Below are positions 19,760 through 47,797 of a stretch of DNA of 64,000 nt, piece by piece. The stretch comes from an uncultured Candidatus Saccharibacteria bacterium (GTDB lineage: Bacteria; Patescibacteriota; Minisyncoccia; Ryanbacterales; 2-02-FULL-48-12). Position 1 is the first letter of the stretch. Each line of letters opens with the position of its first letter. A model generated the notes under the pieces. The model was not told the DNA's origin and searched no databases. It worked only from the letters and a program-made list of their open reading frames with translations. The translations under genes were made by a program, and so were the position numbers. The stretch is from positions 11,493 through 75,492 of the forward strand of contig CAYZNS010000001.1 in assembly GCA_964479945.1 (NCBI GenBank), read 5' to 3'.

Positions 19760-19917
19760 CAAAAATTATTCTAATTGCTCTAATTATTCTAATTGACCTA
19801 AGGAATGCCAAAATTCCAATACCCAATCATCAACATAATTTCTTTTGTGATTTAAGTCATTCGGTCATTGGGATTTCCTTAGAATAATTAGGTCAATTAG
19901 GGTAATTAGAATAATTT
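19760..19917 (+). mobile_element. MITE-like element, copy A (~160 bp, ~45-nt imperfect terminal inverted repeats)
   Basis: AAATTATTCTAATTGCTCTAATTATTCTAATTGACCTAAGG ... CCTTAGAATAATTAGGTCAATTAGGGTAATTAGAATAATTT. Near-identical copies at 34090-34247 and 47641-47797 (opposite orientation) and 43136-43599 (long form). Confidence 0.7.
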
Positions 19918-19918
19918 G

Positions 19919-22231
19919 TTATAGTGTTTCCAAAAAAGCATCCACTTCACTCTTCCTCCCCGGATCAAGCTGTAACACCTTCCTTGCCGCTTCCCGCGCA
20001 TGTTCCGTCTCTCCCGCTTTTTGATATAACGCCGCCAGATGCGCATAGTATACCGCCCGCTGCCGCGGCGTCAACTCGCTCGGACCCGATTCAATAGCCC
20101 GGACAATTTCCTCCTGTACGCGCACGGCGTCAGAAAACCGCTCCCGCTTATAATACGCATCGCGCAATCCTTCCTGTCGAAGGCCGCCATGCATTTGAAA
20201 CCACTCTTTTTGAATTTTTTCGCGCTCCTCATTGCCGGTTTCTATAGCAAGTACCGCGGCATTGAGATGACCAAATTCAAATTCTGGCAACGTCTGCAAT
20301 ATATAATCAAGATATTCCCAAGCTCCCGCAACATCACCCTGCACCTTGCGCGCTTGGGCAAGCTCCAAGTAAATCTGTGGCCGCCCGGGGGACATTTCTT
20401 TCGCGCGGAGAAAATCCTCTTCCGCTTTGCGGGCAAGCGCGGCGTCAAATTTCTGCGCCATTAAACTGTACAACTGCCCCCGGTACATCACCCATTTTAC
20501 GTTTCGGGGATCGGCCGCGATATTCTCATCCATTTTTTCTATTGCATACGCCATAAGCCGTGTAAGCGATGCATCCGGCCTGCTGCCGCCCTGTTTTAGG
20601 AACTCAAACACATACTCGGCCGCAAACCGCCGCGCATCTATGGAATACTGCGTGCCATGGGAGATGCTTTTTTCAAATTGAGAAATCGCCGCCGCATCGC
20701 CGCCGCCGGTACGCAGCAACTCCCATCCTCTGTGCGCCGCCGTGTTCGCAAGAAGCGGCTTGAGCGCTATCGCATAGAGCAAAATTAGCGTTCCCGCGCA
20801 TGCGGGGATCCAGTATATAAACGCATGTTTCTGTGAATTACGAAATAGGTGCAGGGTTGTGACTAACCGAGCTCTACACGCGCCGAAGGCAGTGTGGATA
20901 GCCCGGTTCGGCATACCCGGAGTATTGTTGTCATTGCGCGTTCCTGTGTAACCAAGACGCGGCGCGTTGTGTTCTTGTGCATCTATATACCCGAACACAA
21001 ATATAATAATCATGAACGATGTGAGCGTATCAAACGTAAACATGTTCTGCGCAAGATGCGCAATCAGCAAAGAGATCAGCAGAGCCATGCTCCAAAACGG
21101 CATACTTCCCCGTTTCCATGATCGCGCTGCCAGAAAGCCGGCTGCGCCGAACATGCCCAGATACGCAAGCAGACCTAAAACGCCGGAGGTCGATCCCACA
21201 TCAAAAACAACATTGTGCGCGCGATCAAACCACGGCTCCACCGTATAGAGCGCGGGGTCATAATGCGCGTCAAAGAGAACATTGAAATTTTCGGGTCCCC
21301 ACCCCACCATCAAGCGTTCACTCCAGCCTTCCCATGCCACGCGCCAGGCCAGAATGCGCCCCGATGCAGTCCGTTCCTCAATAGTAAAATCAAAAAGACT
21401 CTGAAGCCGCCCAGGCAAAATTTTCTGCGAAACTTGCGGGGCCATGAAAAGAACTGCGGCGCCCAGCACACCAATCACCAAAACCGCGCCCGCAATCCGC
21501 TTGAGCTTCACGTTTGAAAATGAAAGCGTGTTTCCCGTCTTTTCTCCGAAAATTAAAAATAAAATAAGACTCGCGAACAATCCCGTTCCCAGCCCCACAA
21601 TACCTGCCCGCGCTTCGGTAAACACAAGAGCAAACAGCATAAGCAACGCAGCCGCGCCATACATCCATGCGCGCGCGGAGAATTTCTGCTCCCGAAACAA
21701 AAGAAAGAGTGCAAGAAAAAATACTGGGACAAGATACGAAGAGAGATACGCCGCATTCCCTATGGTGGCAACTGCTAAATCTGGCGCGGTAAGCCCCTGC
21801 CAGACGGCATGAATTGCAACAAGTAACCCCGTTCCCGCCGCGCAATGAAAGAGGATATCCCATTCCCGCTCGCGGAGAGCCGCGGAGGAAAGTATGAAAA
21901 ACAGCGCGCCGAGATGCAGCCACGTTATCAAGCCAAACATGCGTTCCGTATCCGACCAGATGCTTTTTCCGGTATCCACGCCAGTAAGCGCCGTGATGCC
22001 GAGAATGCCAAGAAATAACACAACAGCGCCGGCAATCCAAGAAACGCGCAGCCGGTACTCCGGCTTTGAGAACGCCAACAAAAACCACGCCAATAGCGCC
22101 GCATCAACAAGTATGTAAAATGCGATTGTTTTTATAAATGTGTACGGAAAAAACACTCCGCGCCACACGAGAAGCGGGATAAGAATAAAAACGGCCGCGA
22201 GAATCCAAAATAGTATATTACGAATCATCAA
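19919..22231 (-). CDS. O-antigen ligase (Wzy_C)-like polytopic membrane protein with C-terminal TPR repeats
   Basis: More than ten TM helices, ligase-type loop RILAWRVAWEGWSERLMVGWGPENF, and C-terminal TPR-like helical repeats. Confidence 0.7.
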   Translation of the reverse strand: MMIRNILFWILAAVFILIPLLVWRGVFFPYTFIKTIAFYILVDAALLAWFLLAFSKPEYRLRVSWIAGAVVLFLGILGITALTGVDTGKSIWSDTERMFGLITWLHLGALFFILSSAALREREWDILFHCAAGTGLLVAIHAVWQGLTAPDLAVATIGNAAYLSSYLVPVFFLALFLLFREQKFSARAWMYGAAALLMLFALVFTEARAGIVGLGTGLFASLILFLIFGEKTGNTLSFSNVKLKRIAGAVLVIGVLGAAVLFMAPQVSQKILPGRLQSLFDFTIEERTASGRILAWRVAWEGWSERLMVGWGPENFNVLFDAHYDPALYTVEPWFDRAHNVVFDVGSTSGVLGLLAYLGMFGAAGFLAARSWKRGSMPFWSMALLISLLIAHLAQNMFTFDTLTSFMIIIFVFGYIDAQEHNAPRLGYTGTRNDNNTPGMPNRAIHTAFGACRARLVTTLHLFRNSQKHAFIYWIPACAGTLILLYAIALKPLLANTAAHRGWELLRTGGGDAAAISQFEKSISHGTQYSIDARRFAAEYVFEFLKQGGSRPDASLTRLMAYAIEKMDENIAADPRNVKWVMYRGQLYSLMAQKFDAALARKAEEDFLRAKEMSPGRPQIYLELAQARKVQGDVAGAWEYLDYILQTLPEFEFGHLNAAVLAIETGNEEREKIQKEWFQMHGGLRQEGLRDAYYKRERFSDAVRVQEEIVRAIESGPSELTPRQRAVYYAHLAALYQKAGETEHAREAARKVLQLDPGRKSEVDAFLETL

Positions 22232-24503
22232 GTGAGCGTAAAAATTCTTCTACTTCTGGCGCGCGCGCCGGGTCTGCCGCAAGAACCCGTTCCGCATAGC
22301 CGCGCGCCCGTTCCTTGCGTCCCAATTCCGCTTCCATATTTGCCGTGGCAAGCAATAAATCAATATTTGTTGCCGCATCCAGCGTTGGCTGCAAGGAATC
22401 CATAAATTGTCTGCGTCCGGCCGCATCTCCATTCACGGCAAGAGCGCGTTGGATAACAAGCGCGAGTTTTTCCTGCTCAAAGGGTGCCGCACCGGGGAAA
22501 TTTGGCGTATTCCCCATACTGATATATTGCGCAACCTGCCGCGTCGCCTTCTCATAATCGCCTGCCAGTATACTCACGGAAAGAAGACTGTAGATAAACG
22601 GCGTAGGCCGCGTCATCTCTCCATAAATACTATCCATTACTTCAGCCGCATTCTTTGGATCCTGCGCCGCCAAATAGGTTTCCGCCGTGCCTATATACAC
22701 CGGCGGGTAATGAGGCGCCAACTTTCGCGCTTCGTTGTACGCGGCAAGCGATGCATCCCTGCTGCGCTCATCTCCCGTAGCAACAAAATGAAGCTGGTAG
22801 AGCTTTCCTAATGTAATAATCTCGCGAACCGCATGCGGACGCCCGTCAGTCTCTTTCTTTAATTCCTCAATACCTTTTGAAACTAGCATGGTAAAATCCT
22901 GCTGACCGATCCCTTTGGTACGGCTTGCCTGAAACACAACATCCACATAACGTTCCCGCGCTTCGGTAACGCCGAACGTGCCTTCCCGGAGAACGGTGTC
23001 AAATTTAGAATTGACGCTCAGTACTGTTGTGCCCGGCCGCGACGTCTCGCCCAGCATTTCTATAATGCCGCGCGCCACGCGCATGGGAGCGGCATTTGCA
23101 ATGTACGCGGCGCCGATTGCGAGAACCATTATCACCATGCCTGCAACAAGCTTTTGATGAATCGGCGCATACGTATGCTGCATATCAGCCGGTGCGCGCA
23201 TACTTTGCAAAAACGCCAGAAACAACACCAGAAAAAGGTACGTTACAATAGTGTCAAACACAAATGTGTTTTGCGCCAAATACGCGGCGAAAAATCCAGC
23301 CGTCAGCGCCGCCTGCGCCGTATCAAACACATGGCGGCGCCACAGTTGCCAGATGACAATAGCGCTTGCTGTCAAAAGCGCCAGATACGCGGCAAACCCC
23401 AACATGCCGCCGGCAATCAGCCATTCAAAATGCATATTATGCACACGGTCAAACCACGGCTCGTTGCCAAACAAATCCGGATTATAGTATTTCGCATACG
23501 GAATAATGAAATTCCCCGGACCCCATCCCAATAGGGGACGCTCTTTAAGTCCATCCCATGCGATGCCCCATATCATAAAGCGCGATTGTGCCGTCCCCGA
23601 TGCGGGACGAATGTCCGCCATCCGAGCCAAAAGCGCGTTTGATTGGATAAATGCGCTTTCACGAAAGAGAAACAAGGCGCCGGCAAGCATGAGTCCACTT
23701 GCAAGTACTGCGCCGCCCGCCAGACGCACGCGCCGGCTTTCAGAAAGAAACACAAAAAGAAGAAGGGTAACACATGCGCCCGCGAAAAACCCCAGAAGCG
23801 CCCCGCGTGTTTCGGTGAATAGAAAGAGATACAATTGGAAAAGAAAAATAACGCTGTATCCCGCGCGAAGCCAGACATTGCGCGTCCAGGAACATAAGAT
23901 GCCAAGGATAAAGAAATGAAAAAGCAGATATGCCCCAAAGTAAATGGGGTTGCCCAGCCTGGAGAAAATACGCTCACCGGTGGAACCCGGCACTTGTACG
24001 GCTCCCGTCTTTTCCAAAAATCCATAGAACGATACAAAGATGCTCACAAAAACTGATGTGTGAAAAAGCAGCGACCAATCCCAACGCGCGCGAAATACCG
24101 ATGATATCATCAAAAACAATGCAAAGAGATGCAAATACGTTATAAGTCCCTCCATCCGCTCGAAGTTAGACCAGAAACTATGATACGGATCCGCGCCGAA
24201 GACAGTGGCTATCGTAAGTACGGCTATAAACGCCGCGAGCGCCCACAGCACGATACCGCGCCGCGGGCGGTAGTAAGGAAATGCCAGCGCCAGCGCCAGC
24301 CATACACCGAATACGATCTCTGTTAGTATGCGAAAGAAGAAATTTTTTCCGGTTATATAGGGGAAAAACATAGTAGGAGCGACAACGAGAGGCGCGGCAA
24401 ACACCAGCAAAACACCGATCCGCACTCCCCATAGCAGCAGCTTTTCCGTTGTGGAATTCATGGAAATAACTATAGCACATTGTAAAGACATGCAAAATAA
24501 CAT
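22218..24503 (-). CDS. paralogous O-antigen ligase-like / TPR membrane protein
   Basis: Same architecture as the downstream neighbour (RFMIWGIAWDGLKERPLLGWGPGNF, EPWFDRVHN shared motif). Overlaps it by 14 nt. Confidence 0.7.
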   Translation of the reverse strand: MLFCMSLQCAIVISMNSTTEKLLLWGVRIGVLLVFAAPLVVAPTMFFPYITGKNFFFRILTEIVFGVWLALALAFPYYRPRRGIVLWALAAFIAVLTIATVFGADPYHSFWSNFERMEGLITYLHLFALFLMISSVFRARWDWSLLFHTSVFVSIFVSFYGFLEKTGAVQVPGSTGERIFSRLGNPIYFGAYLLFHFFILGILCSWTRNVWLRAGYSVIFLFQLYLFLFTETRGALLGFFAGACVTLLLFVFLSESRRVRLAGGAVLASGLMLAGALFLFRESAFIQSNALLARMADIRPASGTAQSRFMIWGIAWDGLKERPLLGWGPGNFIIPYAKYYNPDLFGNEPWFDRVHNMHFEWLIAGGMLGFAAYLALLTASAIVIWQLWRRHVFDTAQAALTAGFFAAYLAQNTFVFDTIVTYLFLVLFLAFLQSMRAPADMQHTYAPIHQKLVAGMVIMVLAIGAAYIANAAPMRVARGIIEMLGETSRPGTTVLSVNSKFDTVLREGTFGVTEARERYVDVVFQASRTKGIGQQDFTMLVSKGIEELKKETDGRPHAVREIITLGKLYQLHFVATGDERSRDASLAAYNEARKLAPHYPPVYIGTAETYLAAQDPKNAAEVMDSIYGEMTRPTPFIYSLLSVSILAGDYEKATRQVAQYISMGNTPNFPGAAPFEQEKLALVIQRALAVNGDAAGRRQFMDSLQPTLDAATNIDLLLATANMEAELGRKERARGYAERVLAADPARAPEVEEFLRSLDDS

Positions 24504-24517
24504 AACGTACGATATAT

Positions 24518-25903
24518 ATGCCTCAAAAACGCCTTATTACCCTTTCCCTTGCCGTCGGTGATCTTTTTTTTCTCTATGCCGCCCTTGCATTTACGCTTTT
24601 AGCTCGTTACGGCATTGACCTTGCCGAGCCGTGGAAAATCCACAAATTTCCTTTTTTGGCGGTATTTGGCATCTGGATACTCCTCTTTTTTATCGCAGGC
24701 CTCTATGAACAAAATGTATGGAGCGCGGACCGTACGGTAAAGGAACGGATTCTGCGTACCATAGCCGCCGCAGGCTTACTAGCCGTGCTTTTGTTTTATC
24801 TCGTCCCCGCGTTCGTTATTACGCCGAAGACAAATCTTCTTATTGTAATCGCCCTTTCCATGGGGCTGCTTATCGGCTGGCGCATGCTCGCGAGCGCCAT
24901 AATCCGCAACACGTCAAAAACGAACATATTATTTTTTGGCGTTTCCGATGAAGTTATTGCCCTCTCCCGCACGCTTAACAACCATCCGCATCTTGGCTAC
25001 CGCGTTGCGGCGTTGGTACATGCTGAGCCGTCGCCTTCGAAAAACCTACCTCCCTCCGGAATACCAATACTGCCATTTGATGCGGAACTGCCCCGCCTCC
25101 TGCAACATGAAAACATATCGCTGGTGGTCGCCTCCGCGGAAGTGCACTCTAACAAGGAATTCGTTCGCATGCTCTACAACGTGCTTCCGCTCAAGATACG
25201 GTTTATGGACTTTCCCACATTCTACGAGCAGATGACGGGCAAAGTACCTGTTTCCCTTATATCAGAAATATGGTTTTTGGAAAACGTGAGCGAGCGGGAA
25301 AAGCGTGTATTTGAAGTAATCAAACGAAGCTACGATGCATTTGTGGCGCTCCTGCTCTGCCTACCCGTCCTTATTATGACTCCCTTCATTGTGCTTGCCA
25401 TCAAGCTGGATTCGCGCGGGCCGGTATTCATCCGCCAGAAAAGAATTGGCAAAAACGACATTCCCTTTACGATTTATAAATTCCGCTCCATGATCGCCTC
25501 AACCCCCGATGGTCTCGCCGAGGACGGCAAGGCGCGATGGGCAGAGCAAGGTGACGGCCGCATAACGCGCGCCGGCAGGTTTCTTCGGAATAGCCGTCTT
25601 GACGAATTGCCGCAGCTTATAAATATTTTAAAAGGCGAGATGAGTTTCGTGGGGCCGCGCCCGGAACGCCCCGAGTTTATAGAGACGCTCAAAGCGCAAA
25701 TTCCGTTTTACGAGATCCGCCACCTGGTGCGCCCGGGGCTTTCCGGCTGGGCGCAAATCAATTTCCCGTACGGCGCATCCGTGGAAGACGCCATGCAGAA
25801 ATTGCAGTTAGATCTCTACTACATAAAAAACAGGTCCGTCGCCCTGGACCTGAATATAGCGCTCAAAACCATCTGGGTCATTCTCTCGCGGGAAGGAAGG
25901 TAA
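24518..25903 (+). CDS. polyprenyl-phosphate sugar phosphotransferase (WbaP/EpsL-type initiating transferase)
   Basis: C-terminal bacterial sugar transferase domain (KFRSM...DELPQLINILKGEMSFVGPRPERPEF) after four N-terminal TM helices. Confidence 0.85.
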   Translation: MPQKRLITLSLAVGDLFFLYAALAFTLLARYGIDLAEPWKIHKFPFLAVFGIWILLFFIAGLYEQNVWSADRTVKERILRTIAAAGLLAVLLFYLVPAFVITPKTNLLIVIALSMGLLIGWRMLASAIIRNTSKTNILFFGVSDEVIALSRTLNNHPHLGYRVAALVHAEPSPSKNLPPSGIPILPFDAELPRLLQHENISLVVASAEVHSNKEFVRMLYNVLPLKIRFMDFPTFYEQMTGKVPVSLISEIWFLENVSEREKRVFEVIKRSYDAFVALLLCLPVLIMTPFIVLAIKLDSRGPVFIRQKRIGKNDIPFTIYKFRSMIASTPDGLAEDGKARWAEQGDGRITRAGRFLRNSRLDELPQLINILKGEMSFVGPRPERPEFIETLKAQIPFYEIRHLVRPGLSGWAQINFPYGASVEDAMQKLQLDLYYIKNRSVALDLNIALKTIWVILSREGR

Positions 25904-28030: not shown

Positions 28031-29029
28031 TTATATCAAATCAACATTGAGCGCCTCTTCTACAATATATTTCGGGCGCTGTTTTGTTTCCTCAAACATA
28101 ATACTCACGGCTTCCCCCAGAAATGACAAGGCGATTGAATGAAATGTGAGCAGGAATAATACGATAATAGACACCAAAGCGGCAAACCATGATAGCGTGC
28201 CGAAAAATGCGAGAATAATGAATGTTATGGCAAAGAACGGAAATAATATGGCAATCCAAAACGCAACACGTGTAATAAACGCAAACGGAGCTTCGGAAAA
28301 TGAAAATATAAACTTTTTCGCCCACCAAAAATTCTTGGCAAAGCCGGGGTTGGACGTAACGCCGCCTTTTCGATCCTCGCGGTTATATACCACGCCCGTA
28401 TGCCGGAACCCCAGCCATGCGCGGATACCCCTCACAAACCGCGAGCGCTCCGGCAACTTGTTAAACACGTCCGCAACCTGCCGGTCAAGCAGCGAGAAAT
28501 CTCCCGCATCAGCCGGAATATTCAGATAAGAAAGCTTATCAAATAGGCGGTAAAACCCCCGCCGGAACAGCCGCGAGAAAAATGAACCCGTTGAACGCGG
28601 GCGCACGCCATAGACTACTTTAAAGCCTTCCTGCCATTTTTTAATAAACTCCGTAATAACTTCCGGCGGATCTTGGAGATCGGCTTCCATCCAGATTATC
28701 GCATCCCCGCGGGCATACTCCGTGCCTGCCGAATAGCCATACTGCGAATTACCGTAATTGCGCGCAAAAAACAACGCTTTTACATGACCGTCGCGGGCTG
28801 CAAAGTCCCGCAGAAGCTCGCGCGTACGGTCGCGGCTGACGTTATCCACAAAAATAATTTCGTACTGCGGCGCGCTTTCCCGAAGAACTTTTGAAAGCCG
28901 CTGGTACAATTCCGGAATGTTGGATTCTTCGTTGTAGCAGGGGATTACAACGGAGAGCATTTTGTCGGTAAGAAAAGACATAAAAGATAACCCAAAACTC
29001 ATAATGCAAAAGTCAAAACTTAAACTCAA
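28031..29029 (-). CDS. GT2 glycosyltransferase, polyprenol-phosphate hexosyltransferase-like (DPM1/GtrB type) with C-terminal TM helices
   Basis: LSVVIPCYNEESNI...YEIIFVDNVSRDRTRELL...MEADLQDPPE, then two C-terminal TM helices. True start is probably an internal Met. Confidence 0.8.
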   Translation of the reverse strand: MSLSFDFCIMSFGLSFMSFLTDKMLSVVIPCYNEESNIPELYQRLSKVLRESAPQYEIIFVDNVSRDRTRELLRDFAARDGHVKALFFARNYGNSQYGYSAGTEYARGDAIIWMEADLQDPPEVITEFIKKWQEGFKVVYGVRPRSTGSFFSRLFRRGFYRLFDKLSYLNIPADAGDFSLLDRQVADVFNKLPERSRFVRGIRAWLGFRHTGVVYNREDRKGGVTSNPGFAKNFWWAKKFIFSFSEAPFAFITRVAFWIAILFPFFAITFIILAFFGTLSWFAALVSIIVLFLLTFHSIALSFLGEAVSIMFEETKQRPKYIVEEALNVDLI

Positions 29030-29103
29030 AAATAAAAACTAAAAGTTTTAAGTTTGAAGTTTCAGTTTTGCGTTTTGATTTTTGAATTTTGAATTTTGAG
29101 TTT
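29030..29103. terminator. same class (AAAGTCAAAACTTAAACTCAAAAATAAAAACT ... AGTTTTAAGTTTGAAGTTTCAGTTTTGCGTTTTGA)
   Basis: Lies between the DegT gene and the GT2 gene. Confidence 0.55.
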
Positions 29104-33124: not shown

Positions 33125-34072
33125 CTATAAATAAAGATTTCTATTTCTTTTAAACCATTCAACTGTCCGCGCCAGCCCATCATCCAGTGTTGTAGCGGCT
33201 TTCCAGTCCAATATTTTTTTTGCTTTGGACACGTCATAGACGTGTTTTCGCGCAGAGTCCCATCGCCGCTCCTCAACCGCGCCCCATTGCAGCGGCACGG
33301 GAGTGCTCATGCGCCGCTGTACCGTGGTAACAACATCCTTGATAGAATATTCTCTGCCGGCGCCGATATTGATGATTTCTCCCGGCGCGACATCGCATTC
33401 TGCGGCGCGTTCAAACGCATCAAGCGCGTCTTCCACGAATAAAAAATTTTTTCGCGGCTTGGGCGAAGAGAGCTTGAGAGGCGTCTGCTTGAGATGCGCA
33501 AGAATAGACGCCGGCACCAAGCGGCGCGCTTCTTCATACGGCCCGTAAAGCAGCGACGGGCGCACAATGACAATCGGCATTTTATGAAAACGCGCATAGT
33601 ACTGCGCAAACAAGCTCTGCGACGCTTTTGAGGCACCGTACGCATTTGCTGGCCGCAAAAGAGAATACTCCTGCATCCACGCTTCATCGGAATCATACTC
33701 CATAACACTCCCCACATTTACGATACGCTCAACGGAACCACTATAACGAAGCGCCTCCAATAAATATATTGTTCCCAAAATATTGGAAACAACCATCTCT
33801 GTCAATACATTCTGATCAGTAAACAAAGTATGCGGAGGTCCCGCTATATGATACACAATTTCGGGTTGTGCTTTCTTCACGGCGCGCGCAACCGCGCGGG
33901 TATCGGCAAGATTTGCCTTATGCACAGTCAGGCGGGGTAAAATATCACGGATGCGCCAGGCATCCGAACTGGCGCGCATAATTATATGCACATCCGCGCC
34001 GCGCGAAACCAGCCGATGCGCAAGATTGGCGCCGACAAACCCCGTAGCCCCAGTTATAAGAATTTTGGACAT
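33125..34072 (-). CDS. NAD-dependent epimerase/dehydratase (extended SDR)
   Basis: MSKILITGATGFVGANLAHRL, YGASKAS. The longer track ORF (to 34162) runs into the MITE; ATG at 34072 chosen. Confidence 0.8.
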   Translation of the reverse strand: MSKILITGATGFVGANLAHRLVSRGADVHIIMRASSDAWRIRDILPRLTVHKANLADTRAVARAVKKAQPEIVYHIAGPPHTLFTDQNVLTEMVVSNILGTIYLLEALRYSGSVERIVNVGSVMEYDSDEAWMQEYSLLRPANAYGASKASQSLFAQYYARFHKMPIVIVRPSLLYGPYEEARRLVPASILAHLKQTPLKLSSPKPRKNFLFVEDALDAFERAAECDVAPGEIINIGAGREYSIKDVVTTVQRRMSTPVPLQWGAVEERRWDSARKHVYDVSKAKKILDWKAATTLDDGLARTVEWFKRNRNLYL

Positions 34073-34089
34073 ACGAAAAATTAAATTGA

Positions 34090-34247
34090 AAATTATTCTA
34101 ATTACCCTAATTGACCTAATTATTCTAAGGAAATCCCAATGACCGAATGATTTAAATCCCAAAAGAAACTATATATGTTGATGATTGGGTATTGTGATTT
34201 GGGCATTCCTTAGGTCAATTAGAATAATTAGAGCAATTAGAATAATT
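34090..34247 (-). mobile_element. MITE-like element, copy B (reverse orientation relative to copy A)
   Basis: Reverse complement of copy A with about 90% identity. Keeps the internal ATGACC start-codon remnant of the four-helix-bundle gene. Supplies the TAA stop of rfbG. Confidence 0.7.
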
Positions 34248-35228
34248 TTACTTTGCTGTTTCAAAAAATTCCTTGTACCAATCAATAGTGCGACGAAGCC
34301 CCTCCTCCAGCGTAAATTTCGGCTGCCATCCGAGCATTTCCCGCGCCTTTGCGGCGGACAGATATTGGTGCGGTATCTCGTGCGCCGCAGTTGCCAAAAT
34401 TTGCGGCTGCAAGTTACTACCCATAAGCGCGAGAATCTTATTAGCAAGCTCCAATACCGTAATTTGGTTTTCGTTGCTAAAATTAAACGCGTGGCCATGT
34501 ATGCGCTCATCGTCCATGCGCTCCGCAAGCGTAAGATACGCATGCGCGGCATCTTCAATATAAAAATAATCGCGGACCATACTGCCATCCGAGCGCAGAA
34601 CGGGCGGTATTCCATGTACTACAGACCGGATAGTGCCGGGCACAATGCGGTTGAAATTAAGATCTCCCCCGCCGTAAAAATTACCGCAACGCGTAATCGC
34701 TACCGGCAATTTATAGGTATTAAAATACGTATGCGCAATAAGATCCGCGGCACTCTTGGAAACATCGTACGGGTGGCTACCTTGCAGAGGCGCGGCTTCA
34801 CTGTACGGTAGCTCTTTATGCACGCCGTATGCTTTATCGGAAGACGCCACCACCACACGCTTTACCAGCGGGCTCCGGCGCGCGGCTTCCAGAACATTCC
34901 AGGTCCCTTTGATGTTTGATTCAAACGTGGAGAGGGGGTTCCTGTTTGCAATCTCAACAATTGTCTGCGCGCCGAGATGAAACATTGTGTCAATTTCATA
35001 TTCCCCCAATGCGCGTTCAAGTACCGGATAATCCTCCAAAGCGCCCCGCACAATAGTAACTTTGTGAATATAACCGGAACGAAACAGTTGCGCGTTTGGC
35101 ACAATATCACGAACAAGCACGGTAACATTTGCTTCCGCGTTCACAAGCGACTTTGTAAGCCACGAGCCCAACAAGCCGCTTGCCCCTGTAACAAAAACGT
35201 TTTTATGCTTCCAATACGCCGGAATCAT
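34248..35228 (-). CDS. rfbG: CDP-glucose 4,6-dehydratase
   Basis: [23 protein letters not shown] matches the RfbG N-terminus; extended SDR fold. Confidence 0.8.
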
Positions 35229-35308
35229 GCGTAAATTATCATACAACAAGATTTGCAATATCACAACCTTCTTTGGCTATTTTCTCGGGTAGAAAAAAAT
35301 GCTAAAAT

Positions 35309-38784: not shown

Positions 38785-39378
38785 TTACACCTGCCGAAAG
38801 CCGTACCTGCGCCTGGCATACAGCCAATTGAGAAATGTATACCAAAGGCAAAAGAGTGGCCCATATCCTGCGGCAATGGCCGTTATTGCGTGCAATATGC
38901 GGTACACCCATTTATGCCGCTCTGAACCGAAATACACTCTATAAATCTTCATGTGAAGATTCACGCGTGCCATATAGTGCGCCACCGCGGAATACATGAC
39001 CTGCAAGTACGCCCCCATTTCAGGAGATACAGTAAAAACCTCAATAATGTGATTGGGATGTTTCTCGGCAAGCCGCGCAAATGCCAGCCCGTCGGATGGC
39101 GATCCGGTCGTTTCCGTTCCCTCAATCACAATAGCAGCAGGATTAATGTTCCCGAAAGACACAACATCCGCCATCATAACATTATGAAGCACAAATTGTT
39201 TTGACGGATCGCGCACCACGGAGCGCGGAAAGCTGAATAGGGCCGAATGGCCTTCCTGCTGAAGCGTTTCCATGCGCCAGGCGGCATTCAAAAGCGCCTG
39301 CCGTGACCAAAAATCCGTCCGTGAAGAATCATTCCGATCAAACCCGGACGGAACCCAAAACAATATGTAATCTGCCAA
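38785..39378 (-). CDS. hypothetical protein (TTG start); shares a promoter/RBS module with the gene at 39905-40570
   Basis: Coding-like ORF preceded (minus sense) by TATAAAT ... GGAAAGGAGG then TTG. Confidence 0.4.
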   Translation of the reverse strand: MADYILFWVPSGFDRNDSSRTDFWSRQALLNAAWRMETLQQEGHSALFSFPRSVVRDPSKQFVLHNVMMADVVSFGNINPAAIVIEGTETTGSPSDGLAFARLAEKHPNHIIEVFTVSPEMGAYLQVMYSAVAHYMARVNLHMKIYRVYFGSERHKWVYRILHAITAIAAGYGPLFCLWYTFLNWLYARRRYGFRQV

Positions 39379-39388
39379 AAGAACGTCC

Positions 39389-39428
39389 TCCTTTCCAAAA
39401 TTCTGCCATAATTTATATCACATTCATA
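39389..39428 (-). promoter_or_regulatory. duplicated promoter/RBS module, copy 1 (TGATATAAATTATGGCAGAATTTTGGAAAGGAG)
   Basis: A 40-nt block repeated at 40581-40620 with 2 mismatches, each directly upstream of a minus-strand gene start. Confidence 0.5.
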
Positions 39429-39904: not shown

Positions 39905-40570
39905 TCACGCAATACTATCGTCATCTGGCAGTTTTACACCAACGGCCTTTAGACGAAACTTTAAAAGTTCAATATGCTCTTTGGCACCATTAAACACGAC
40001 TCCTTTCATTCCAAGCTGCATAGCCGCTTCTACATACGAAGCAACATCATCAATAACAACGCATTCTGATGGCTTAAGCCCATATCGCTGTTCGAGATCC
40101 ACGGCAACTACGCCATAAAGTTTTGGCTTCAGGCAGCGTGCATTACCAGAAGCATATACATGATCAAACCGTAAGCCATATTCCATAAACAACATCCGCG
40201 GGACATATTCGCTTCCGTAATCACCGTTAGACACAGCAAACATTTTGTACGTTTTTTTAAGCGAACACGCCAATTTCACTGTCGATTCTATAGGACGCAG
40301 ATGACAGACAAACATAGAAACAAAATCGTGAAATTGCATATCCCGCCGACTGATGCCGCCCACTTTGCACACACGCCGCCAAAGATCCTGAAAACTCATC
40401 TCGCCCGTATCCAACCTTTGGTAAACCGCTTCTCCCCACTGACTACCAAAGATAAGCGAAGCAGTTTTACTATTGCCACCGTAGTAGTCCACTATTTTCT
40501 GGATAACATCCTTTCGCTCCCAAAATGTAACGTATACACGACCGAAGTCATTCAGAATTGCTTTTATCAC
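39905..40570 (-). CDS. HAD-superfamily hydrolase-like protein (degenerate motif I)
   Basis: C-terminal VVIDDVASYVEAAMQLGMKGVVFNG (HAD motif III/IV-like). N-terminal LNDFGRV replaces the canonical DxDGTL. GTG start behind an AAGGAG RBS. Confidence 0.5.
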   Translation of the reverse strand: MIKAILNDFGRVYVTFWERKDVIQKIVDYYGGNSKTASLIFGSQWGEAVYQRLDTGEMSFQDLWRRVCKVGGISRRDMQFHDFVSMFVCHLRPIESTVKLACSLKKTYKMFAVSNGDYGSEYVPRMLFMEYGLRFDHVYASGNARCLKPKLYGVVAVDLEQRYGLKPSECVVIDDVASYVEAAMQLGMKGVVFNGAKEHIELLKFRLKAVGVKLPDDDSIA

Positions 40571-40580
40571 TTGGTTCCGC

Positions 40581-40620
40581 TCCTTTCCAAAATTCTGCCA
40601 TAACTTATATCACGTTCATG
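40581..40620 (-). promoter_or_regulatory. duplicated promoter/RBS module, copy 2
   Basis: See copy 1; GATATAAGTTATGGCAGAATTTTGGAAAGGAG. Confidence 0.5.
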
Positions 40621-41552: not shown

Positions 41553-42230
41553 TCAAGCGGTTTGTTGCGGCGTAACCAGATGCCACATGTGGCGAATTGC
41601 CTCATTAATATACGGCGCGTAGTCCTGTTGGATCGGAAGCATATTCGGCGGACACTCTTCAAACCAGGCGCAGTCGCCACCCACAGGTTTCTCCGGGTCG
41701 ACAGCAGGCTGCGCGATAAGCCCACCAACCACCTGGCAGCGGTATAAGATCGGGGCATCCCGAAAGCGCGGGCTACCGATCTGGTCAAAAACCTTAAGCA
41801 CTTCAAAAGGCCGAACCTCTAGCCCGGTCTCATCTCGTGCGCAACGCACCACAGCCTCTATAAATGTCTCGCTTTCCTTAGGATATGTCCCGGGCGTATG
41901 CCATCCTTCGCCAAATACCGGATGCAACCGCCATTCAAGGAGGACTTGCCCTTCATGGATGATAACCGCCTCCACCGCGACAACCGGCCCCGCCTTTCTC
42001 TTGATCGGCTCAAACGCGGCACCATGCCGCTCCGGTAACCAATTCTCAAGTTGGTATGCAAGCAGCTCCTTGCCCCGGTCATTAAACTTCCCTTCATCGA
42101 AGCATTCCAGTCCCTCAAGATATGCTTGGAAGAATTGTACATCCTCCTGTGTCATTTCCGCCATTTCTGGCCTCCTTCTTGGAAAAGATAGATTCTCATA
42201 CTGTATAGCAATATTCTGGAACATTGTCAA
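41553..42230 (-). CDS. Nudix hydrolase family protein
   Basis: PGTYPKESETFIEAVVRCARDETGLEV resembles the Gx5Ex7REUxEExGU Nudix box. Confidence 0.6.
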   Translation of the reverse strand: MTMFQNIAIQYENLSFPRRRPEMAEMTQEDVQFFQAYLEGLECFDEGKFNDRGKELLAYQLENWLPERHGAAFEPIKRKAGPVVAVEAVIIHEGQVLLEWRLHPVFGEGWHTPGTYPKESETFIEAVVRCARDETGLEVRPFEVLKVFDQIGSPRFRDAPILYRCQVVGGLIAQPAVDPEKPVGGDCAWFEECPPNMLPIQQDYAPYINEAIRHMWHLVTPQQTA

Positions 42231-42258
42231 TAATCATCCAATATGCTATTATACTCGC

Positions 42259-43146
42259 ATGGAGAATACGAAAAAACGCGTGCTCATAACTGGTGCCGGC
42301 GGGATGCTCGGAAGCGCTTTTACGACGCATTGTATGGAAAAAAAATACAACACGCGCGCGCTGGACCATGCCGCGCTAGACGTGGAAAACCGCGCGGCAG
42401 TACGCACACAACAGAAATGGAGCCCGGATTGGATTATTCACTGCGCGGGTATTGTGAATGCCGATTTTTGCGAAGAGAATCGCGATGCGTGTTTCAAAAA
42501 CCATGTGGAAGGAACGCAACATATCGTGGAGCTTGCGAAAACAACCGGCGCCAAACTGCTCTATCCGCAATCGTTTCTCATTTTTGACGGCAAAGAAAAT
42601 CCTATCACTGAAGAAACCGTCCCTGACCCCCTTTCGGTGTATGGCGAGGCGAAATGGGAAGCGGAACAACGGGTGCGCAAAGAATTGCCCGACGCGCTCG
42701 TCGTCCGCATGGGCGGGTTTTTCGGCGGCGAAGAAAAAGACAAAAACTTTGTCGGCAAGTTCGCGCGTCATCTGAAAAAATGTCTTGACGAAAGTATCAA
42801 AGAAATATCCATAGGAAAAAGAGTTTGGCAGCCAACCTACACCAAAGACCTGGCGGAAAACTGTGTATTGCTTTTGGAACACGAAAAAATCGGCGTATAC
42901 AATATGGCAAGCCATGGTGAGGCATCGTTTTATGACGTGGCATCTGCAATGGTGGAAATCCTTGGAATTGACGACAAAATCACCATCACGCCGTCAACAG
43001 ACGAATATAAAGAAAACGCAAAACGCCCCGACCGCGCCGTGATGGAAAACAGAAGATTGCAAGAAGAAGGGTTGGATAGAATGAGGGGGTGGAAAGATGC
43101 GTTGGGAGAATATCTTTCGCAAAAATATTTTAAAGAATTATTCTAA
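42259..43146 (+). CDS. RmlD-like NAD(P)H-dependent 4-keto-sugar reductase (dTDP-4-dehydrorhamnose reductase family)
   Basis: RVLITGAGGMLGSAF...DWIIHCAGIVNADFCEENRDACFKNHVEGTQHIVELAK is RmlD substrate-binding-domain-like. ATG at 42259 chosen to avoid overlapping the convergent Nudix gene. Stop TAA lies inside the MITE terminal repeat. Confidence 0.75.
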   Translation: MENTKKRVLITGAGGMLGSAFTTHCMEKKYNTRALDHAALDVENRAAVRTQQKWSPDWIIHCAGIVNADFCEENRDACFKNHVEGTQHIVELAKTTGAKLLYPQSFLIFDGKENPITEETVPDPLSVYGEAKWEAEQRVRKELPDALVVRMGGFFGGEEKDKNFVGKFARHLKKCLDESIKEISIGKRVWQPTYTKDLAENCVLLLEHEKIGVYNMASHGEASFYDVASAMVEILGIDDKITITPSTDEYKENAKRPDRAVMENRRLQEEGLDRMRGWKDALGEYLSQKYFKELF

Positions 43147-43599
43147 TTGCTCTAATTATTCTAATTGACCTAATGAAATCCCAATGACCAATACAGATAT
43201 ACCAAAACGTAAATATGATCTTGAAGAAAGAACCGCAACATTCGGAGAAAATATCATCAAGTTTGCAAAGAAAATTCCTATTAATGATGTGACCAAGCGC
43301 ATTGTTCCTCAACTTGTAGCGGCTGGTACTGCTATTGGTGCTAACTATTGCGAGGCCGATGATGCTGAATCAGGAAAAGATTTTAAACATAAAATAGGGA
43401 TATCTAAGAAAGAGGCATGAGAAACGAAACATTGGCTTCGTATGATAGTGGTGGCTGCGTCAGAACTAAAGGATGAAGCACGCACGTTATGGAAAGAAGC
43501 TAATGAACTAAACCTTATTTTCAATGCCATAACCAGAAAAATCAACGATAAGAAAAAATAATTGGTGCTTTTGGTATTGGGGTTTCCTTAGAATAATTT
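43136..43599 (+). mobile_element. full-length TIR element (copy D, ~465 bp) carrying a four-helix-bundle-protein gene
   Basis: Left terminal repeat AATTATTCTAATTGCTCTAATTATTCTAATTGACCTAATGAAATCCCAATGACC and right end GGTATTGGGGTTTCCTTAGAATAATTT match the ends of the short copies. The interior is the four-helix-bundle ORF. Confidence 0.65.
43184..43561 (+). pseudogene. four-helix-bundle protein (TIGR02436 / 23S rRNA intervening-sequence protein family) interrupted by an in-frame TGA at 43418-43420
   Basis: ...LEERTATFGENIIKFAKKIP...VPQLVAAGTAIGANYCEADDAESGKDFKHKIGISKKEA*ETKHWLRMIVVAASELKDEARTLWKEANELNLIFNAITRKI. The family signature continues in frame across the TGA. Confidence 0.7.
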
Positions 43600-43601
43600 A
43601 T

Positions 43602-44648
43602 ATGCTGCTTCTCTCTCCATTCAACAAAAACGGCTTATCGCTCAAAAACCGCGTGGTAATGTCCGCCATGACGCGGAATTTTGCCGACAAAGACCACAAC
43701 CCTACCGATCTTATGCGCGCATATTACGAACGCCGGGCTGCAAACGATGTCGGGCTTATTTTGACGGAAGGCACTATCATCCACCCCAGCGGCGACGGCT
43801 ACCCCGATGTGCCATATATCTATACCAGCGCGCAAGTAGAAGTATGGAAGCGTATTACCGACGCCGTTCATCAGCACGATACAAAAATTTTCTGCCAGCT
43901 TTGGCACTGCGGGCGCATCTCGCATCCGGACTATCTGGGCGGCGCGCTGCCGGTTTCCTCCTCTGCCGTACTCCCGGAAGGCAATGCCCCGCATATGCAA
44001 GTGCCTATGATCACACCGCGCGCGTTAGAACACGATGAAATCCCCGAAATCGTAGAGATGTTCGCAGAAGCGACAAGAAAGGCCCTTGCAGCCGGGTTTG
44101 ACGGCGTGGAAATACACGGCGGGCATGGCTATATTGTTGACCAATTTTTCGACAGCCGCATCAACCGGCGCACGGACGAATATGGCGGCAGCGTGGAAAA
44201 CCGCTGCCGGTTCGGGCTGGAGGTTGCAAAAGCCGTGCTGGAAGTCGCCGGTCCCGAACGTACGGCGCTGCGCATCTCGCCCTCGCGCGACATGAAAGGC
44301 CTCTACGAATGGCTCAACTTGGAAGAGATGCTTACTTATCTTATCCCGCAACTTGATAAAGCGGGCTTGCACATCCTGGATATTAGCTGCGCCCGCAGCG
44401 ACACCGTAAACATATACGAATCAACATCGGGAAAGATAGTGCGCATGGTACGCGCAATGTGGCCGCATATTATCATGGCGGGTGCAAGTTTGCCGGCCGA
44501 ACGCGCAGATGAAGAAATAGAAAACGGCATGGTTGATCTTATAACCTACGGGCGGTTTATTTTAGCAAACCCCGATTTCGTAAAAAAAATAGCAGCGGGC
44601 GAGCCGCTGGTTCCGTATGATCCTGAGATGAGAAAAACGTTGTATTAA
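43602..44648 (+). CDS. Old Yellow Enzyme-family NADH:flavin oxidoreductase (alkene reductase)
   Basis: LKNRVVMSAMTRN, HGGHGYIVDQFF, and the C-terminal OYE barrel. Confidence 0.85.
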   Translation: MLLLSPFNKNGLSLKNRVVMSAMTRNFADKDHNPTDLMRAYYERRAANDVGLILTEGTIIHPSGDGYPDVPYIYTSAQVEVWKRITDAVHQHDTKIFCQLWHCGRISHPDYLGGALPVSSSAVLPEGNAPHMQVPMITPRALEHDEIPEIVEMFAEATRKALAAGFDGVEIHGGHGYIVDQFFDSRINRRTDEYGGSVENRCRFGLEVAKAVLEVAGPERTALRISPSRDMKGLYEWLNLEEMLTYLIPQLDKAGLHILDISCARSDTVNIYESTSGKIVRMVRAMWPHIIMAGASLPAERADEEIENGMVDLITYGRFILANPDFVKKIAAGEPLVPYDPEMRKTLY

Positions 44649-44865
44649 CTCAAAAACCAAAACTCAAAATGCAAAACTTAAACTCAAAACTGCAAACTGA
44701 CTTAAAATCACGCTGTTATAAATTCGGTCTTGAAGTTATTCGTTTGACCGATACCTTTCCACAATCGTGCCGCAAAAAAGGCCGGATCATGGACAAAGAC
44801 TGTGAAAAAATGCATCCCCCTATTGTCGTCGAACTGATTCAGCGCGCACGTAAAAAATAACCTCC

Positions 44866-46221
44866 ATGCAACTGTATACCACCCGCGCACTGTTTTGTCT
44901 TATACTCATAATTTTTATCACGGGCATGGGTGGATTTTTTATAGGACTGAAATTTTTTAGCGCCCATGTTTCCGACATATCGCATATTGTAACCCGCCTT
45001 GATATTCTTCACGCAAATAATAACGCGCTGTGGCGTAATTTTTCGCCAACGTGGCGTTCTTTAAAACGTGTTGTAGACCTGCCATATGTATTGTATTACG
45101 CATTTTATACAACAAAATTACCTGTCTATGAACTTTCGTTATCTCGATCAGATACAAAAAATCTCCTTGCAAATTTACCTGTGTATCCTGGAAATACACT
45201 GCTCTACGACGAACACAAAGAAGCAGTTAAAGGTTCTTTTCGTACTAGCGCTTACTTCACCGATGAGGCAAAAATTCGTTATCGTGGGCTGACATCAAGC
45301 CATTGGAATGCAAAAAAGAAATCGTGGCATATTATACTTCCCTCATCACAACCGCTTCAGGGAACACACAAACTCCGGTTTGTTTTGCCGGAAGACAGAC
45401 GCTGGGCTACATATTTAGTCAACCAGCATAGAGCGCAAAAACTCAACCTCATAATGCTTACCGCGCATTTTGGGCGACTCACTGTAAATGAAGAAAATGC
45501 GGGCATATATCTTGTGCAAGAGGGATGGACGCCCGCGTTGCTTACAAAAACCGGACGCACGCCTGACGGCATTATATTTTCTGAACGCGACGGAGCACTG
45601 CAGAAAAATCTTTTTATGCCTGAACATATAGACATGTGGGAAAACAAACTGACCGGAGAACCAGCCGCTTCACACAAAGCTCTCCGCGCCCTGCTTGATC
45701 TAATAGCAAACTCGCCGGATGATGAATTTGCCAATACACTGCCGCGTATTCTTAACATGGAAGCAACGTATAACTGGATGCTTCTTATCGCGCTCTCCGG
45801 AAGCGCGCATCAGAATAACTATGAAAACGCAGCTTTCTATTTTGATCCCTCATCAAATATGTTTGAACCGATTCCCTTTGATCTTTCGTTAAACCCTCTC
45901 GGCAGTACATGGAACCATGGAAAAAATAACCTGATACGCAGAATCATGAGCATTCCATCATTTCAAAAAGAATTCAGCGCGCGTATTGCGGCATACGTAC
46001 GCAACCCCCAGACACTGCAAGATGACCTTGCCGTATATGACATGACGGTCGACCAAATAAAACCCGACGTGTTAAGCGACATCAAAAAAATTCAGTCTTC
46101 CGCAGAAGTTCTACAATCGTTTATCGACCAACGGACAATTATAGAAACCAACGCGCATATCCTCGCTGATATGATCCGACAAAATGGAGCTATATACTAC
46201 GACCCCATCCCAAAACTCTGA
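44866..46221 (+). CDS. CotH-family (atypical kinase-like) protein with N-terminal membrane anchor
   Basis: CotH signature AKIRYRGLTSSHWNAKKKSWHIILP. Shares NFSPTWRSLKR and other blocks with the paralogs at 50490 and 52903. Confidence 0.7.
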   Translation: MQLYTTRALFCLILIIFITGMGGFFIGLKFFSAHVSDISHIVTRLDILHANNNALWRNFSPTWRSLKRVVDLPYVLYYAFYTTKLPVYELSLSRSDTKNLLANLPVYPGNTLLYDEHKEAVKGSFRTSAYFTDEAKIRYRGLTSSHWNAKKKSWHIILPSSQPLQGTHKLRFVLPEDRRWATYLVNQHRAQKLNLIMLTAHFGRLTVNEENAGIYLVQEGWTPALLTKTGRTPDGIIFSERDGALQKNLFMPEHIDMWENKLTGEPAASHKALRALLDLIANSPDDEFANTLPRILNMEATYNWMLLIALSGSAHQNNYENAAFYFDPSSNMFEPIPFDLSLNPLGSTWNHGKNNLIRRIMSIPSFQKEFSARIAAYVRNPQTLQDDLAVYDMTVDQIKPDVLSDIKKIQSSAEVLQSFIDQRTIIETNAHILADMIRQNGAIYYDPIPKL

Positions 46222-46296
46222 TTTACCGCTATAATAAAGACATTATCAGGTGAGTAATCATCAATTGCTCACAAAAATAACGATAGTGTCTTTATG

Positions 46297-46717
46297 ATAG
46301 AAGTACATCGACATCCATATAATTCGGATATAACAGGTGCGCAGTGGGAGCGCATTGAACCGTTATTGCCAAAACAGGTCGAAAAAGAAGTAATCCACGC
46401 GAGGTACTAAACGGTATTCTCTATGTGCTTTCAACCGGTTGCCGATGGAAAGACCTGCCACACGATATTAGTGCGTCTCCTTCTACCTGTAATAGGTGGC
46501 TCCTTACCGAAAGAATCATAGAACTATCTATCTTGGAAGACCGCCAAAGGATACGCACGAAAAACGGTATAACCAGCAACGGTGGAAAGTGGAACGAACA
46601 TTTAGCCGGGCGAACAATAATCGGAGAATTGATCGTATGTTGGAACGAACACAGAAATCATATCGGGCATTTATACGAGTATATATCATGAAACATTATT
46701 TAAACCTTTTATATTAA
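46297..46717 (+). mobile_element. IS5/IS1182-family transposase remnant (frameshifted, internally deleted)
   Basis: N-terminal ...ITGAQWERIEPLLP... then a frameshift to ...LNGILYVLSTGCRWKDLPHD... (DUF4096-type). Far C-terminal ...QQRWKVERTFSRANNNRRI..RYE tail. The DDE core is missing. Confidence 0.65.
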
Positions 46718-46857
46718 TGTATTTTGAGTTTTGGGATGACTTCATTGAAAACAAAGAATGAAACCAAATTTTTGCGAGCTAAAAATATTATCATTGATTT
46801 ATAGGCTTTTTATTGAAAAGTTGCACTTGTAAATTGAATTCAGCTTGAATTAATTTT

Positions 46858-47640
46858 CTATTTCTCCCACACCATCCAGGGCCGCTCCCCTTTATTGTAA
46901 TACGCATTCAATCCTTCCACGTGCTTAAACGTGTCCATGCAATGCCAAAACTTGTTGTGTTGGTAAATCGCAAGCTGTCCTTGAGACGCGATCTGCCGGA
47001 GCGGCCCTTGCTCAAAAATCATGGTACCTTCCGGCGAGAGAAACTCAAACACTTTTTTATTGCACACAAAAAATCCGCCGTTTGCCCAATCCTGCGATTG
47101 CGGCTTTTCGGTAAAGGTTGTTACTACGCCATTTGCCGCTTCAATGACCCCAAATGGATTGGGCGGCTGGACACCCGTTACCGTAACCATTTTATTTTTC
47201 TCGCGATGAAAACGGTATAAATCCAAGATATCCACGTCGGTAACGGCATCCCCGTATGTCAGCATAAACTCTTCGTCGTCCCCAATGTATTTTTGAATGC
47301 GCGCGATACGGCTGCCCGTTTCGCACGCCTGCCCCGTATCCGCGAATGTTATCTTCCAATTGGGCGTGCCATTATCGTGATGAAAAACTTCTTTCTTTCC
47401 CGAACCAAGCTTCAACGTAAAGTCATGAGCCAGCTCATCGTAGTTCAGGAAATAATTTTTTATCATATCGCCCTTGTATCCCAGGCACAAAATAAAATCG
47501 TTGTATCCGTAATGAGAATATAACTTCATAATGTGCCACAAAATAGGCCGATCGCCCACCATAACCAGCGGCTTCGGCCGATATTCCGTCTCTTCCCGCA
47601 AGCGGGTCCCCTGTCCCCCGCATAAAATAACTACTTTCAT
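46858..47640 (-). CDS. rfbF: glucose-1-phosphate cytidylyltransferase
   Basis: MKVVILCGGQGTRLREETEYRPKPLVMVGDRPILWHIMK matches the canonical RfbF N-terminus. Confidence 0.9.
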   Translation of the reverse strand: MKVVILCGGQGTRLREETEYRPKPLVMVGDRPILWHIMKLYSHYGYNDFILCLGYKGDMIKNYFLNYDELAHDFTLKLGSGKKEVFHHDNGTPNWKITFADTGQACETGSRIARIQKYIGDDEEFMLTYGDAVTDVDILDLYRFHREKNKMVTVTGVQPPNPFGVIEAANGVVTTFTEKPQSQDWANGGFFVCNKKVFEFLSPEGTMIFEQGPLRQIASQGQLAIYQHNKFWHCMDTFKHVEGLNAYYNKGERPWMVWEK

Positions 47641-47797
47641 AAATTATTCTAATTACCCTAATTGACCTAATTATTCTAAGGAAATCACAATGACCGAATG
47701 ATTTAAATCCCAAAAGAAACTATATATTGATGATTGGGTATTGGAATTTAGGCATTCCTTAGGTCAATTAGAATAATTAGATCAATTAGAATAATTC
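47641..47797 (-). mobile_element. MITE-like element, copy C
   Basis: Near-identical to copy B. Starts immediately after the rfbF ATG and ends about 10 nt before the stop of the next gene. Confidence 0.7.

Follow-up and report, generated by a model that had tools for sequence, protein, structure and literature searches.

The window analysed here, a stretch of 64,000 nucleotides (nt) from contig CAYZNS010000001.1, carries four related repeats in the gaps of a sugar-modification gene cluster, and on the evidence of their sequence these repeats are members of one palindromic insertion-element family that is widespread in Patescibacteria. One of the four encloses a gene for a four-helix-bundle (4HB) protein of family PF05635, while the other three are short forms with no open reading frame (ORF). 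We consider it probable that one explanation accounts for the locus as a whole, namely that the copies belong to this family and arrived by insertion, would ride on host operon transcripts as hairpins, may present their terminal TAGAAT word as a -10 box to the gene downstream, and would most likely owe their mobility to intact 4HB-bearing copies acting in trans. The initial annotation of the window had recognized the four repeats and had proposed that their inverted pairs rearrange the cluster; it had missed the 4HB gene, the Patescibacteria host and the distribution of the family across phyla.

Anatomy and distribution of the repeat family

A repeat search of the window returned four related copies at the sites first proposed, and we keep the letters given to them there: A at 19761-19917 (+ strand), B at 34089-34248 (-), C at 47641-47797 (-), and D, the long copy, at 43133-43599 (+). 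For a 15-mer from the arms, spanning a pair of words, 14 occurrences were counted in the window where 1.7 would be expected, and all of them fall inside the four copies. The short copies A, B, and C are 157-160 nt long, share 92.6-94.4% identity over their full length, and consist of two arms around an ORF-less core of ~70 nt. The left arm is made of four tandem 9-nt AATTNNNCT words followed by AAGGAA, and the right arm mirrors it, with the end sequence ...AATTAGAATAATTT. The CTAATT cores of the words are mirrored between the arms but the 3-nt spacers are not, and the self-complementarity of the arms is only 66-70%. The termini of the element read AAATT...AATTT and lie in A/T-rich flanks. The full form of the element, with the 4HB gene between two arms, is about 470 nt long. 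Copy D measures 467 nt and comprises a left arm (43133-43183), the 4HB gene as a pseudogene (43184-43561, + strand), and a right arm (43563-43599) from which 27 nt have been lost. As originally described, A and the left arm of D point one way and B and C the other, with 14.2 kb from A to B and about 4 kb from D to C; only the outer ~60 nt of D define how it is oriented with respect to the short copies, and its inner stem is a match to their opposite arm. The size and copy-number description of a MITE (a transposable element of the miniature inverted-repeat type; below ~500 bp, non-coding, several similar copies) fits the three short copies, whereas the fourth copy is coding. The earlier label of MITE therefore holds in that these are recent, MITE-like repeats filling gaps, and fails for D, which at 467 nt and with its coding region is not miniature. 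All four copies lie between protein-coding genes; the window contains no match to ribosomal RNA (rRNA), and Rfam gave no match at gathering thresholds anywhere in the window and none at E ≤ 1 over 17600-21000 and 43000-47900.

The gene carried by D matches PF05635 (23S_rRNA_IVP / S23p / Avd-like) at an E value of 2e-12. Its ORF of 125 codons contains a single in-frame TGA at 43418-43420, a site occupied by Arg in seven of seven aligned homologues, and is otherwise intact. A motif resembling a Shine-Dalgarno (SD) sequence, GAA/AAGGAA, lies ~7 nt ahead of the ATG, with AAGGAA doubling as arm sequence. At least 7978 homologues of the protein exist, and the best of them, at 73-84% identity, bear the labels Patescibacteria, Berkelbacteria, Taylorbacteria, and WOR-3. 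The predicted structure of an 84%-identical homologue (P0004; pLDDT 90.6) gave as its best matches 2RLD and 2GSC, both structures of the S23p family, and then 4DWL and 8UB7, which represent Avd, a protein of diversity-generating retroelements (DGRs). On this structural model the 4HB protein belongs to a fold family shared with Avd, although a likeness to Avd was undetectable at the sequence level by phmmer or by profile search against the PDB and is a match of fold only. PF05635 has itself been described as Avd-like (PMC10053308). A decayed 4HB gene was also suspected in the gap between the OYE and CotH genes (44700-44860) and was rejected for want of Pfam or phmmer support.

The family was traced in other genomes with a 20-nt arm motif, using exact matches and one genome per species. 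Matches were found at 21 genome loci (loci and contigs other than the window are given L numbers), and 20 of these share the architecture seen in the window, with word arms around a variable core; the lone match without arms is in Croceivirga (L008). The loci are spread over Saccharibacteria, Taylorbacteria, Magasanikiibacteriota, Moraniibacteriota, Shapirobacteria, Nomurabacteria, and Minisyncoccales, together with unclassified metagenome-assembled genomes (MAGs), Patescibacteria-group MAGs, and one Ignavibacteria MAG. With near-identical 4HB genes or short cores between them, the arms are also present in WOR-3 MAGs. A start codon often lies a few nt from the copy. In distant phyla identical arms stand beside unrelated genes, such as those for ribosomal proteins, PolX, IleRS, and type IV secretion system components. 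Arms of CTAATT words flank 4HB genes in every context fetched (L009, L022, L032, L127, L129, L130, and L131). Across ten distinct loci, which include other 4HB subfamilies with different arm words, the 4HB gene was co-oriented with both neighbours in all ten and sat in short gaps. In L127 (1872-2560) the left arm of the 4HB element has grown to about 15 CTAATT words, from which the number of arm words is evidently unstable, and an ORF-less second copy follows directly in tandem. Neither the arm pattern nor a relative of the 4HB protein was found in the viral contigs, and carriage by phage was rejected.

Filled and empty junctions

Copy A lies, as first reported, in the gap between the stop codon (19919-21) of a gene with Wzy_C (O-antigen ligase family) and TPR domains upstream (19919-22231, -) and the ATG (19745) of a ugd-like gene downstream (18750-19745, -), which encodes a 331-aa member of the UDP-glucose/GDP-mannose-dehydrogenase family with two of its domains; the copy is antisense to these flanking genes. 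Copy B separates a CDP-glucose 4,6-dehydratase-like (rfbG-like) gene upstream (34248-35264, -) from an NAD-dependent epimerase gene downstream (33125-34072, -). This placement was correct, but the ATG of the epimerase gene (34072) is 16-17 nt away rather than 9 nt, and the copy, which was thought to provide the rfbG-like TAA (34248-50), abuts that codon or overlaps it by 1-2 nt only. Copy C stands between the stop codon of a PMT_2 gene (47807-09), 9 nt away, and a glucose-1-phosphate cytidylyltransferase-like (rfbF-like) gene (46858-47640, -), beginning directly after the ATG of the latter (47640) as described. Copy D is in the same orientation as both of its neighbours, an RmlD-like reductase gene (42259-43146, +) and an OYE-family flavin oxidoreductase gene (43602-44648, +); the earlier observations that it holds the RmlD-like TAA (43144-46), which falls in the first arm word, and ends 2 nt ahead of the OYE ATG (43602) were both borne out. 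The elements thus form the entire upstream region of rfbF and of the OYE gene, as had been proposed.

The OYE, rfbF, and ugd-like proteins led to metagenome relatives of the locus (L035-L038, L116-L126, L134, and L135), and among those with synteny rfbF is from about 76% to more than 90% identical to that of the window. An nhmmer search detected no copy of the window element in the syntenic relatives. The genes to either side of each copy keep their order and strand in the element-free L036, L037, L038, L120/121, L123-126, L134, and L135, and the orthologous junctions are tight, ranging from ATGA start/stop overlaps to gaps of 25 nt. In L036, L038, and L123 the RmlD-like and OYE genes overlap by ATGA; the rfbG/epimerase junction is a 10-nt gap in L036 and an ATGA overlap in L038, and is likewise empty in L037; the PMT_2/rfbF junction varies from a 4-nt overlap to a 23-nt gap and is empty in L037, L120-L126, and L036/L038; and the ligase/ugd junction, at 17-25 nt, is empty in L134 and L135. 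The RmlD-like protein of the relatives is 1-4 codons longer than that of the window. As the syntenic relatives have empty, tight junctions, all four copies are recent, lineage-specific insertions. Further signs of recent activity are the 93-94% identity among the short copies and the interruption of the 4HB ORF by one TGA only.

The same comparison bears on whether the copies might be native regulatory cassettes, inherited vertically and not mobile, that serve as intercistronic terminators or promoters or as RNA-processing signals. Their position exactly between cistrons, the outward-facing -10-like words beside start codons, and the potential to form hairpins would all suit such a role. Yet none of the relatives examined has them at the orthologous junctions, even where rfbF is more than 90% identical, the copies resemble one another far more closely (93%) than the flanking genes resemble their orthologues, and identical arms occur in distant phyla beside unrelated genes. 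We regard this explanation as very unlikely.

The initial annotation had instead treated the inverted copies as substrates for recombination that would flip sugar modules of 14 kb (A/B) and 4 kb (D/C), and had ascribed the separation of rfbF from rfbG to such a rearrangement in the past. Inverted pairs are indeed present, with A and B about 93% identical over 157 nt and the long copy 83% identical to the copy at 47641 over 71 nt, and RecA-type recombination between repeats of this kind is possible in principle. However, gene order and strand around every copy match those of the element-free relatives, a pattern that the initial annotation had itself named as evidence against its proposal. Alternative assemblies, in which it had suggested looking for inversions, gave the same answer: an independent assembly (L115, a 92-kb contig) is collinear with the window over 20.8 kb at 99.98% identity, two copies included, and an identical rfbF occurs on three contigs with the same neighbours in all three. 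The D/C pair has only about 60 nt of homology, either flip would set genes against their co-directional operon, and neither a recombinase nor an invertase is encoded in the window. Nor do the copies behave as an inverton or shufflon, with no recombinase in the window and one orientation only in the two assemblies and all relatives. Separation of rfbF and rfbG is found in the element-free relatives too, at a distance of about 5 kb and in the same relative order, and is therefore ancestral; the greater distance in the window arose because genes were added. Inversion or rearrangement of the gene cluster by the copies is not supported, and we give this explanation almost no weight.

Some of the relatives carry other sequences at these junctions. 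Between the RmlD-like and OYE genes, L035 (200-780) holds a different 4HB element of ~500 nt, L037 (9850-10000) an unrelated palindrome of ~150 nt, and L120 (12239-12333; L120/L121) a word palindrome of ~95 nt; this junction either attracts insertions as a hot spot or tolerates them unusually well. At the PMT_2/rfbF junction of L035 (~2580-2800) an unrelated palindrome, with arms TCCCGTTAGAAGC.../...GCTTCTAACGGGA and containing GCGATCGC, stands at the start of rfbF with an apparent duplication of ATGAA. In L037 (~6085-6118) the native rfbG/epimerase spacer AATTAGAGTAGAATAG resembles two arm words, either by chance or perhaps as a footprint left by an element since lost.

Folding, transcription, and mobility

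As RNA, the short copies are predicted to form long hairpins with imperfect pairing, at -48 to -53 kcal/mol (-51 kcal/mol for A), and in the minimum free energy (MFE) fold of the long copy the ends pair around the ORF (z = -2.4). As the promoter scan offered no convincing promoter for the 4HB gene, this gene probably depends on a host transcript; having no promoter of its own, it would ride on the transcript of the host operon. The arms would then fold into a long imperfect hairpin enclosing the ORF, as in a 23S rRNA intervening sequence (IVS), and a cut by RNase III in the stem would part the operon RNA between cistrons while harming neither.

At the other end of the element, the terminal word TAGAAT, a -10-like hexamer, ends shortly ahead of two start codons, 5 nt from the ATG of rfbF and 7 nt from that of the OYE gene. 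Acting as a -10 box, it would start a leaderless transcript of the downstream gene and, at these distances and in an apparently leaderless genome, could restore downstream expression once an insertion breaks translational coupling. The start regions of the window suggest that leaderless transcripts are widespread in this Ryanbacteria-like genome. Of 51 starts, only 6 follow an SD motif. Among the 46 non-adjacent genes, 11 carry a TAnnnT box 4-9 nt upstream of the start, versus 7.2% of all ATGs. Clear sets of -35, -10, and ATG occur at the S1, RmlD-like, and MurB genes, the native promoter of the RmlD-like gene being TTGTCA-17-TATTAT with the -10 ending 6 nt ahead of the ATG. Many first genes have a -10 box 6-7 nt ahead of the ATG, some with a -35 at 16-17 nt as well; examples are the starts at 3841(-), 4001(+), 10217(-), 16435(-), 42259(+), and 58425(+). 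Insertions into the translationally coupled ATGA junctions of compact Patescibacteria operons are evidently tolerated, and a terminal word that can act as a -10 box in an apparently leaderless genome is one possible reason.

Several observations weigh against this explanation. No covariation supports the hairpin: when 19 copies of the family are aligned and folded with RNAalifold (covariation term -0.18), pairing is confined to the invariant cores of the words, and the 3-nt spacers are conservedly mismatched, for example GAC on the left versus ATT on the right. As the cores pair and the spacers do not, conservation of the words could reflect binding by a protein rather than RNA structure. Asymmetry between strands in G-U pairing is clear in the three short copies of the window but is not a property of the whole family (13 of 19 short and 4 of 7 long copies), and strand-specific stability was dropped as a sign of selection at the RNA level. 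Among short copies, 9 run sense and 6 run antisense to transcription. A scan for the sigma-70 consensus gave 22 sites against 26.8 expected, a chance level at which canonical sigma-70 promoters inside the elements were rejected, and TAGAAT stands at leaderless distance in only two of the four window copies and about a third of family copies. The sole 4HB gene of the window is a pseudogene. Processing by RNase III, a promoter role for TAGAAT, and a role of the 4HB protein in mobility are put forward as proposals only.

Mobility is the least certain step. No transposase, recombinase, or reverse transcriptase (RT) was found in the window except for an unrelated relic of the IS4/5 type of insertion sequence (IS), and the likeliest source of movement would be a trans-acting function of intact 4HB-bearing copies on the word arrays. 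The 4HB protein might serve as the element's own mobility or maintenance factor, a pentamer that reads the arm arrays of four to five words as DNA or folded RNA and drives copying into junctions without a canonical transposase, possibly by way of an RNA intermediate and a host or DGR-type polymerase. In this specific form we hold the proposal to be doubtful. If it were true, rRNA intervening sequences and operon-junction elements would form one unrecognized class of mobile element, and the long-orphan S23p family would gain a function.

The copies could also be ordinary DNA-transposon MITEs, the arms being terminal and subterminal transposase-binding repeats, the elements moved in trans, and the 4HB gene a captured passenger. 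Such an origin would suit the inverted arms, the length of 157-160 nt, the intergenic position, and the existence of several copies that are 93-94% identical, as well as arm words conserved by sequence rather than by pairing; multiple subterminal repeats are typical of some transposon ends, such as those of Tn7 and Mu, and with only 64 kb of the genome in view a transposase may lie elsewhere. Against it, comparison of the four sites with the empty junctions reveals no target-site duplication, although one of 1-2 nt would be possible given the A/T-rich flanks. A transposase-encoding parent with the same ends was not found in the window, and the coding relatives that were found carry only the PF05635 4HB gene. 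Wherever a coding version was found, this cargo is the same highly conserved gene, always in sense orientation and in several phyla, which is not expected of a passenger. We judge a conventional MITE origin to be unlikely. The IS4/5 relic (~46290-46760), which lies between a CotH paralogue and rfbF and consists of a DUF4096 match (E 9e-17) and a DDE tail, was considered as the mobilizing transposase and rejected: its ends are unrelated to those of the repeats, and it is frameshifted and internally deleted. Because the OYE gene and rfbF are adjacent and convergent in the relatives, the CotH gene (44866-46221) and the IS relic look like a separate insertion.

Genomic setting and known relatives

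The flanking genes cluster with Candidatus Ryanbacteria and the Parcubacteria group in exact-sequence protein clusters, and the host is thus a Ryanbacteria-like member of Patescibacteria; the GC content of the window is 47.6%. A cyanobacterial origin or a Nezha-type MITE, guessed from A/T-rich heptamer repeats, was abandoned when the genome scan and the protein clusters gave Ryanbacteria/Parcubacteria instead. The ugd-like protein (18750-19745) lacks the usual C-terminal UDP-binding domain. As homologues with a length of 305-354 aa (mostly 310-350) are common throughout Patescibacteria, its 331-aa form is a conserved short form of the candidate phyla radiation (CPR) and not a truncation.

Other repeats are present in the region. 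A second family of intergenic palindromes, with arms of 7-nt CAAAACT-like words, is found at 2506-2620, 8821-8939, 28974-29102, and 44646-44700, and two of its copies, 8821-8939 and 28974-29102, each occupy the whole gap between co-directional genes. In the relative L036 only about 5 nt separate the genes of the 29103/28981 junction, and in L035 a different 4HB gene has similar words of the CAAAAC type on its flanks. An 81-nt inverted pair (17729-17809, +, and 20833-20913, -; 77% identical) has one member in a 153-nt gap between two epimerase genes and the other inside the Wzy_C/TPR ORF. Its members share blocks of sequence and show apparent compensatory changes in a small hairpin, with no Rfam match at E ≤ 1. 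A 40-nt direct repeat (39388-39427 and 40580-40619; 95% identical) spans the upstream regions, including the GGAAAGGAG SD, of the adjacent genes 38785-39378 and 39905-40570, neither of which has a Pfam match, and is probably the result of a local gene duplication.

Repeats of this kind break MAG assemblies, and annotation pipelines label the coding forms as ordinary "four helix bundle protein" genes. In the literature on Patescibacteria MITEs, mobile 4HB/IVP genes, and leaderless translation in Patescibacteria, only papers on IVSs and on CPR rRNA insertions were relevant, and we found no paper describing palindromes that bear a 4HB gene, or miniature forms derived from them, at sites between protein-coding genes in Patescibacteria.

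Among systems built on short palindromes, the Correia elements of Neisseria are 100-160 nt repeats beside or between genes, are co-transcribed with them, are reported to undergo RNase III cleavage as hairpin RNA and to have outward-facing promoter boxes at their termini, and duplicate a TA target; they have no known coding parent. The short copies of the window are likewise short palindromes beside or between genes, but show no visible duplication and have a coding parent, which encodes a 4HB protein and not a transposase. In REP (repetitive extragenic palindrome)/REPIN systems the RAYT protein is an HUH nuclease flanked by REPs, which are GC-rich hairpins. The window elements resemble these in being short, intergenic, multi-copy palindromes tied to one small associated gene, whereas this gene encodes a helical bundle that does not look enzymatic and the arms are word arrays. 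Avd, whose fold family the 4HB model shares (4DWL and 8UB7 after 2RLD and 2GSC), is the accessory 4HB pentamer of DGRs and binds both the RT and structured RNA. Unlike a DGR, the window shows no RT and no template or variable repeat, and no RT domain was found in the scanned ORFs of the window or among the called genes flanking 4HB loci elsewhere.

The closest known kind of element is the S23p-encoding 23S rRNA IVS of Leptospira and Coxiella burnetii. S23p/23S_rRNA_IVP proteins, and with them the IVSs in which they are encoded, were discovered over 30 years ago, to our knowledge with neither a function nor a mechanism of movement assigned. In these IVSs, which are 430-760 nt long, complementary termini form a stem around a PF05635 4HB ORF; the long copy of the window likewise has ends that pair around its ORF in the MFE fold, though without covariation support, and an ORF of the S23p/23S_rRNA_IVP family by Pfam match (E 2e-12) and by fold (2RLD and 2GSC). 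ORF-less short forms, a sporadic distribution that looks horizontally transferred, and movement that is unexplained are common to both. One such IVS is an element of 428-444 nt with a terminal inverted-repeat stem and an S23p ORF that is excised by RNase III (PMC4990558), and 23S_rRNA_IVP ORFs also occur inside insertions in the 16S and 23S rRNA of CPR bacteria (bioRxiv 10.1101/2024.02.27.582315). The window elements differ from IVSs in their defining location, lying between protein-coding genes and not in rRNA helices, in arms that are arrays of 9-nt words with mismatched spacers where the IVS has a near-perfect 28-bp stem, and in the presence of several near-identical miniature copies within 28 kb. 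Thus, what this locus adds to the known systems is a relative of the S23p-type IVS placed at operon junctions and accompanied by ORF-less derivatives, and it supplies a recently active family (copies 93-94% identical and an ORF that one mutation has inactivated), junctions that are filled here and cleanly empty in relatives, and coding and miniature forms side by side outside rRNA.

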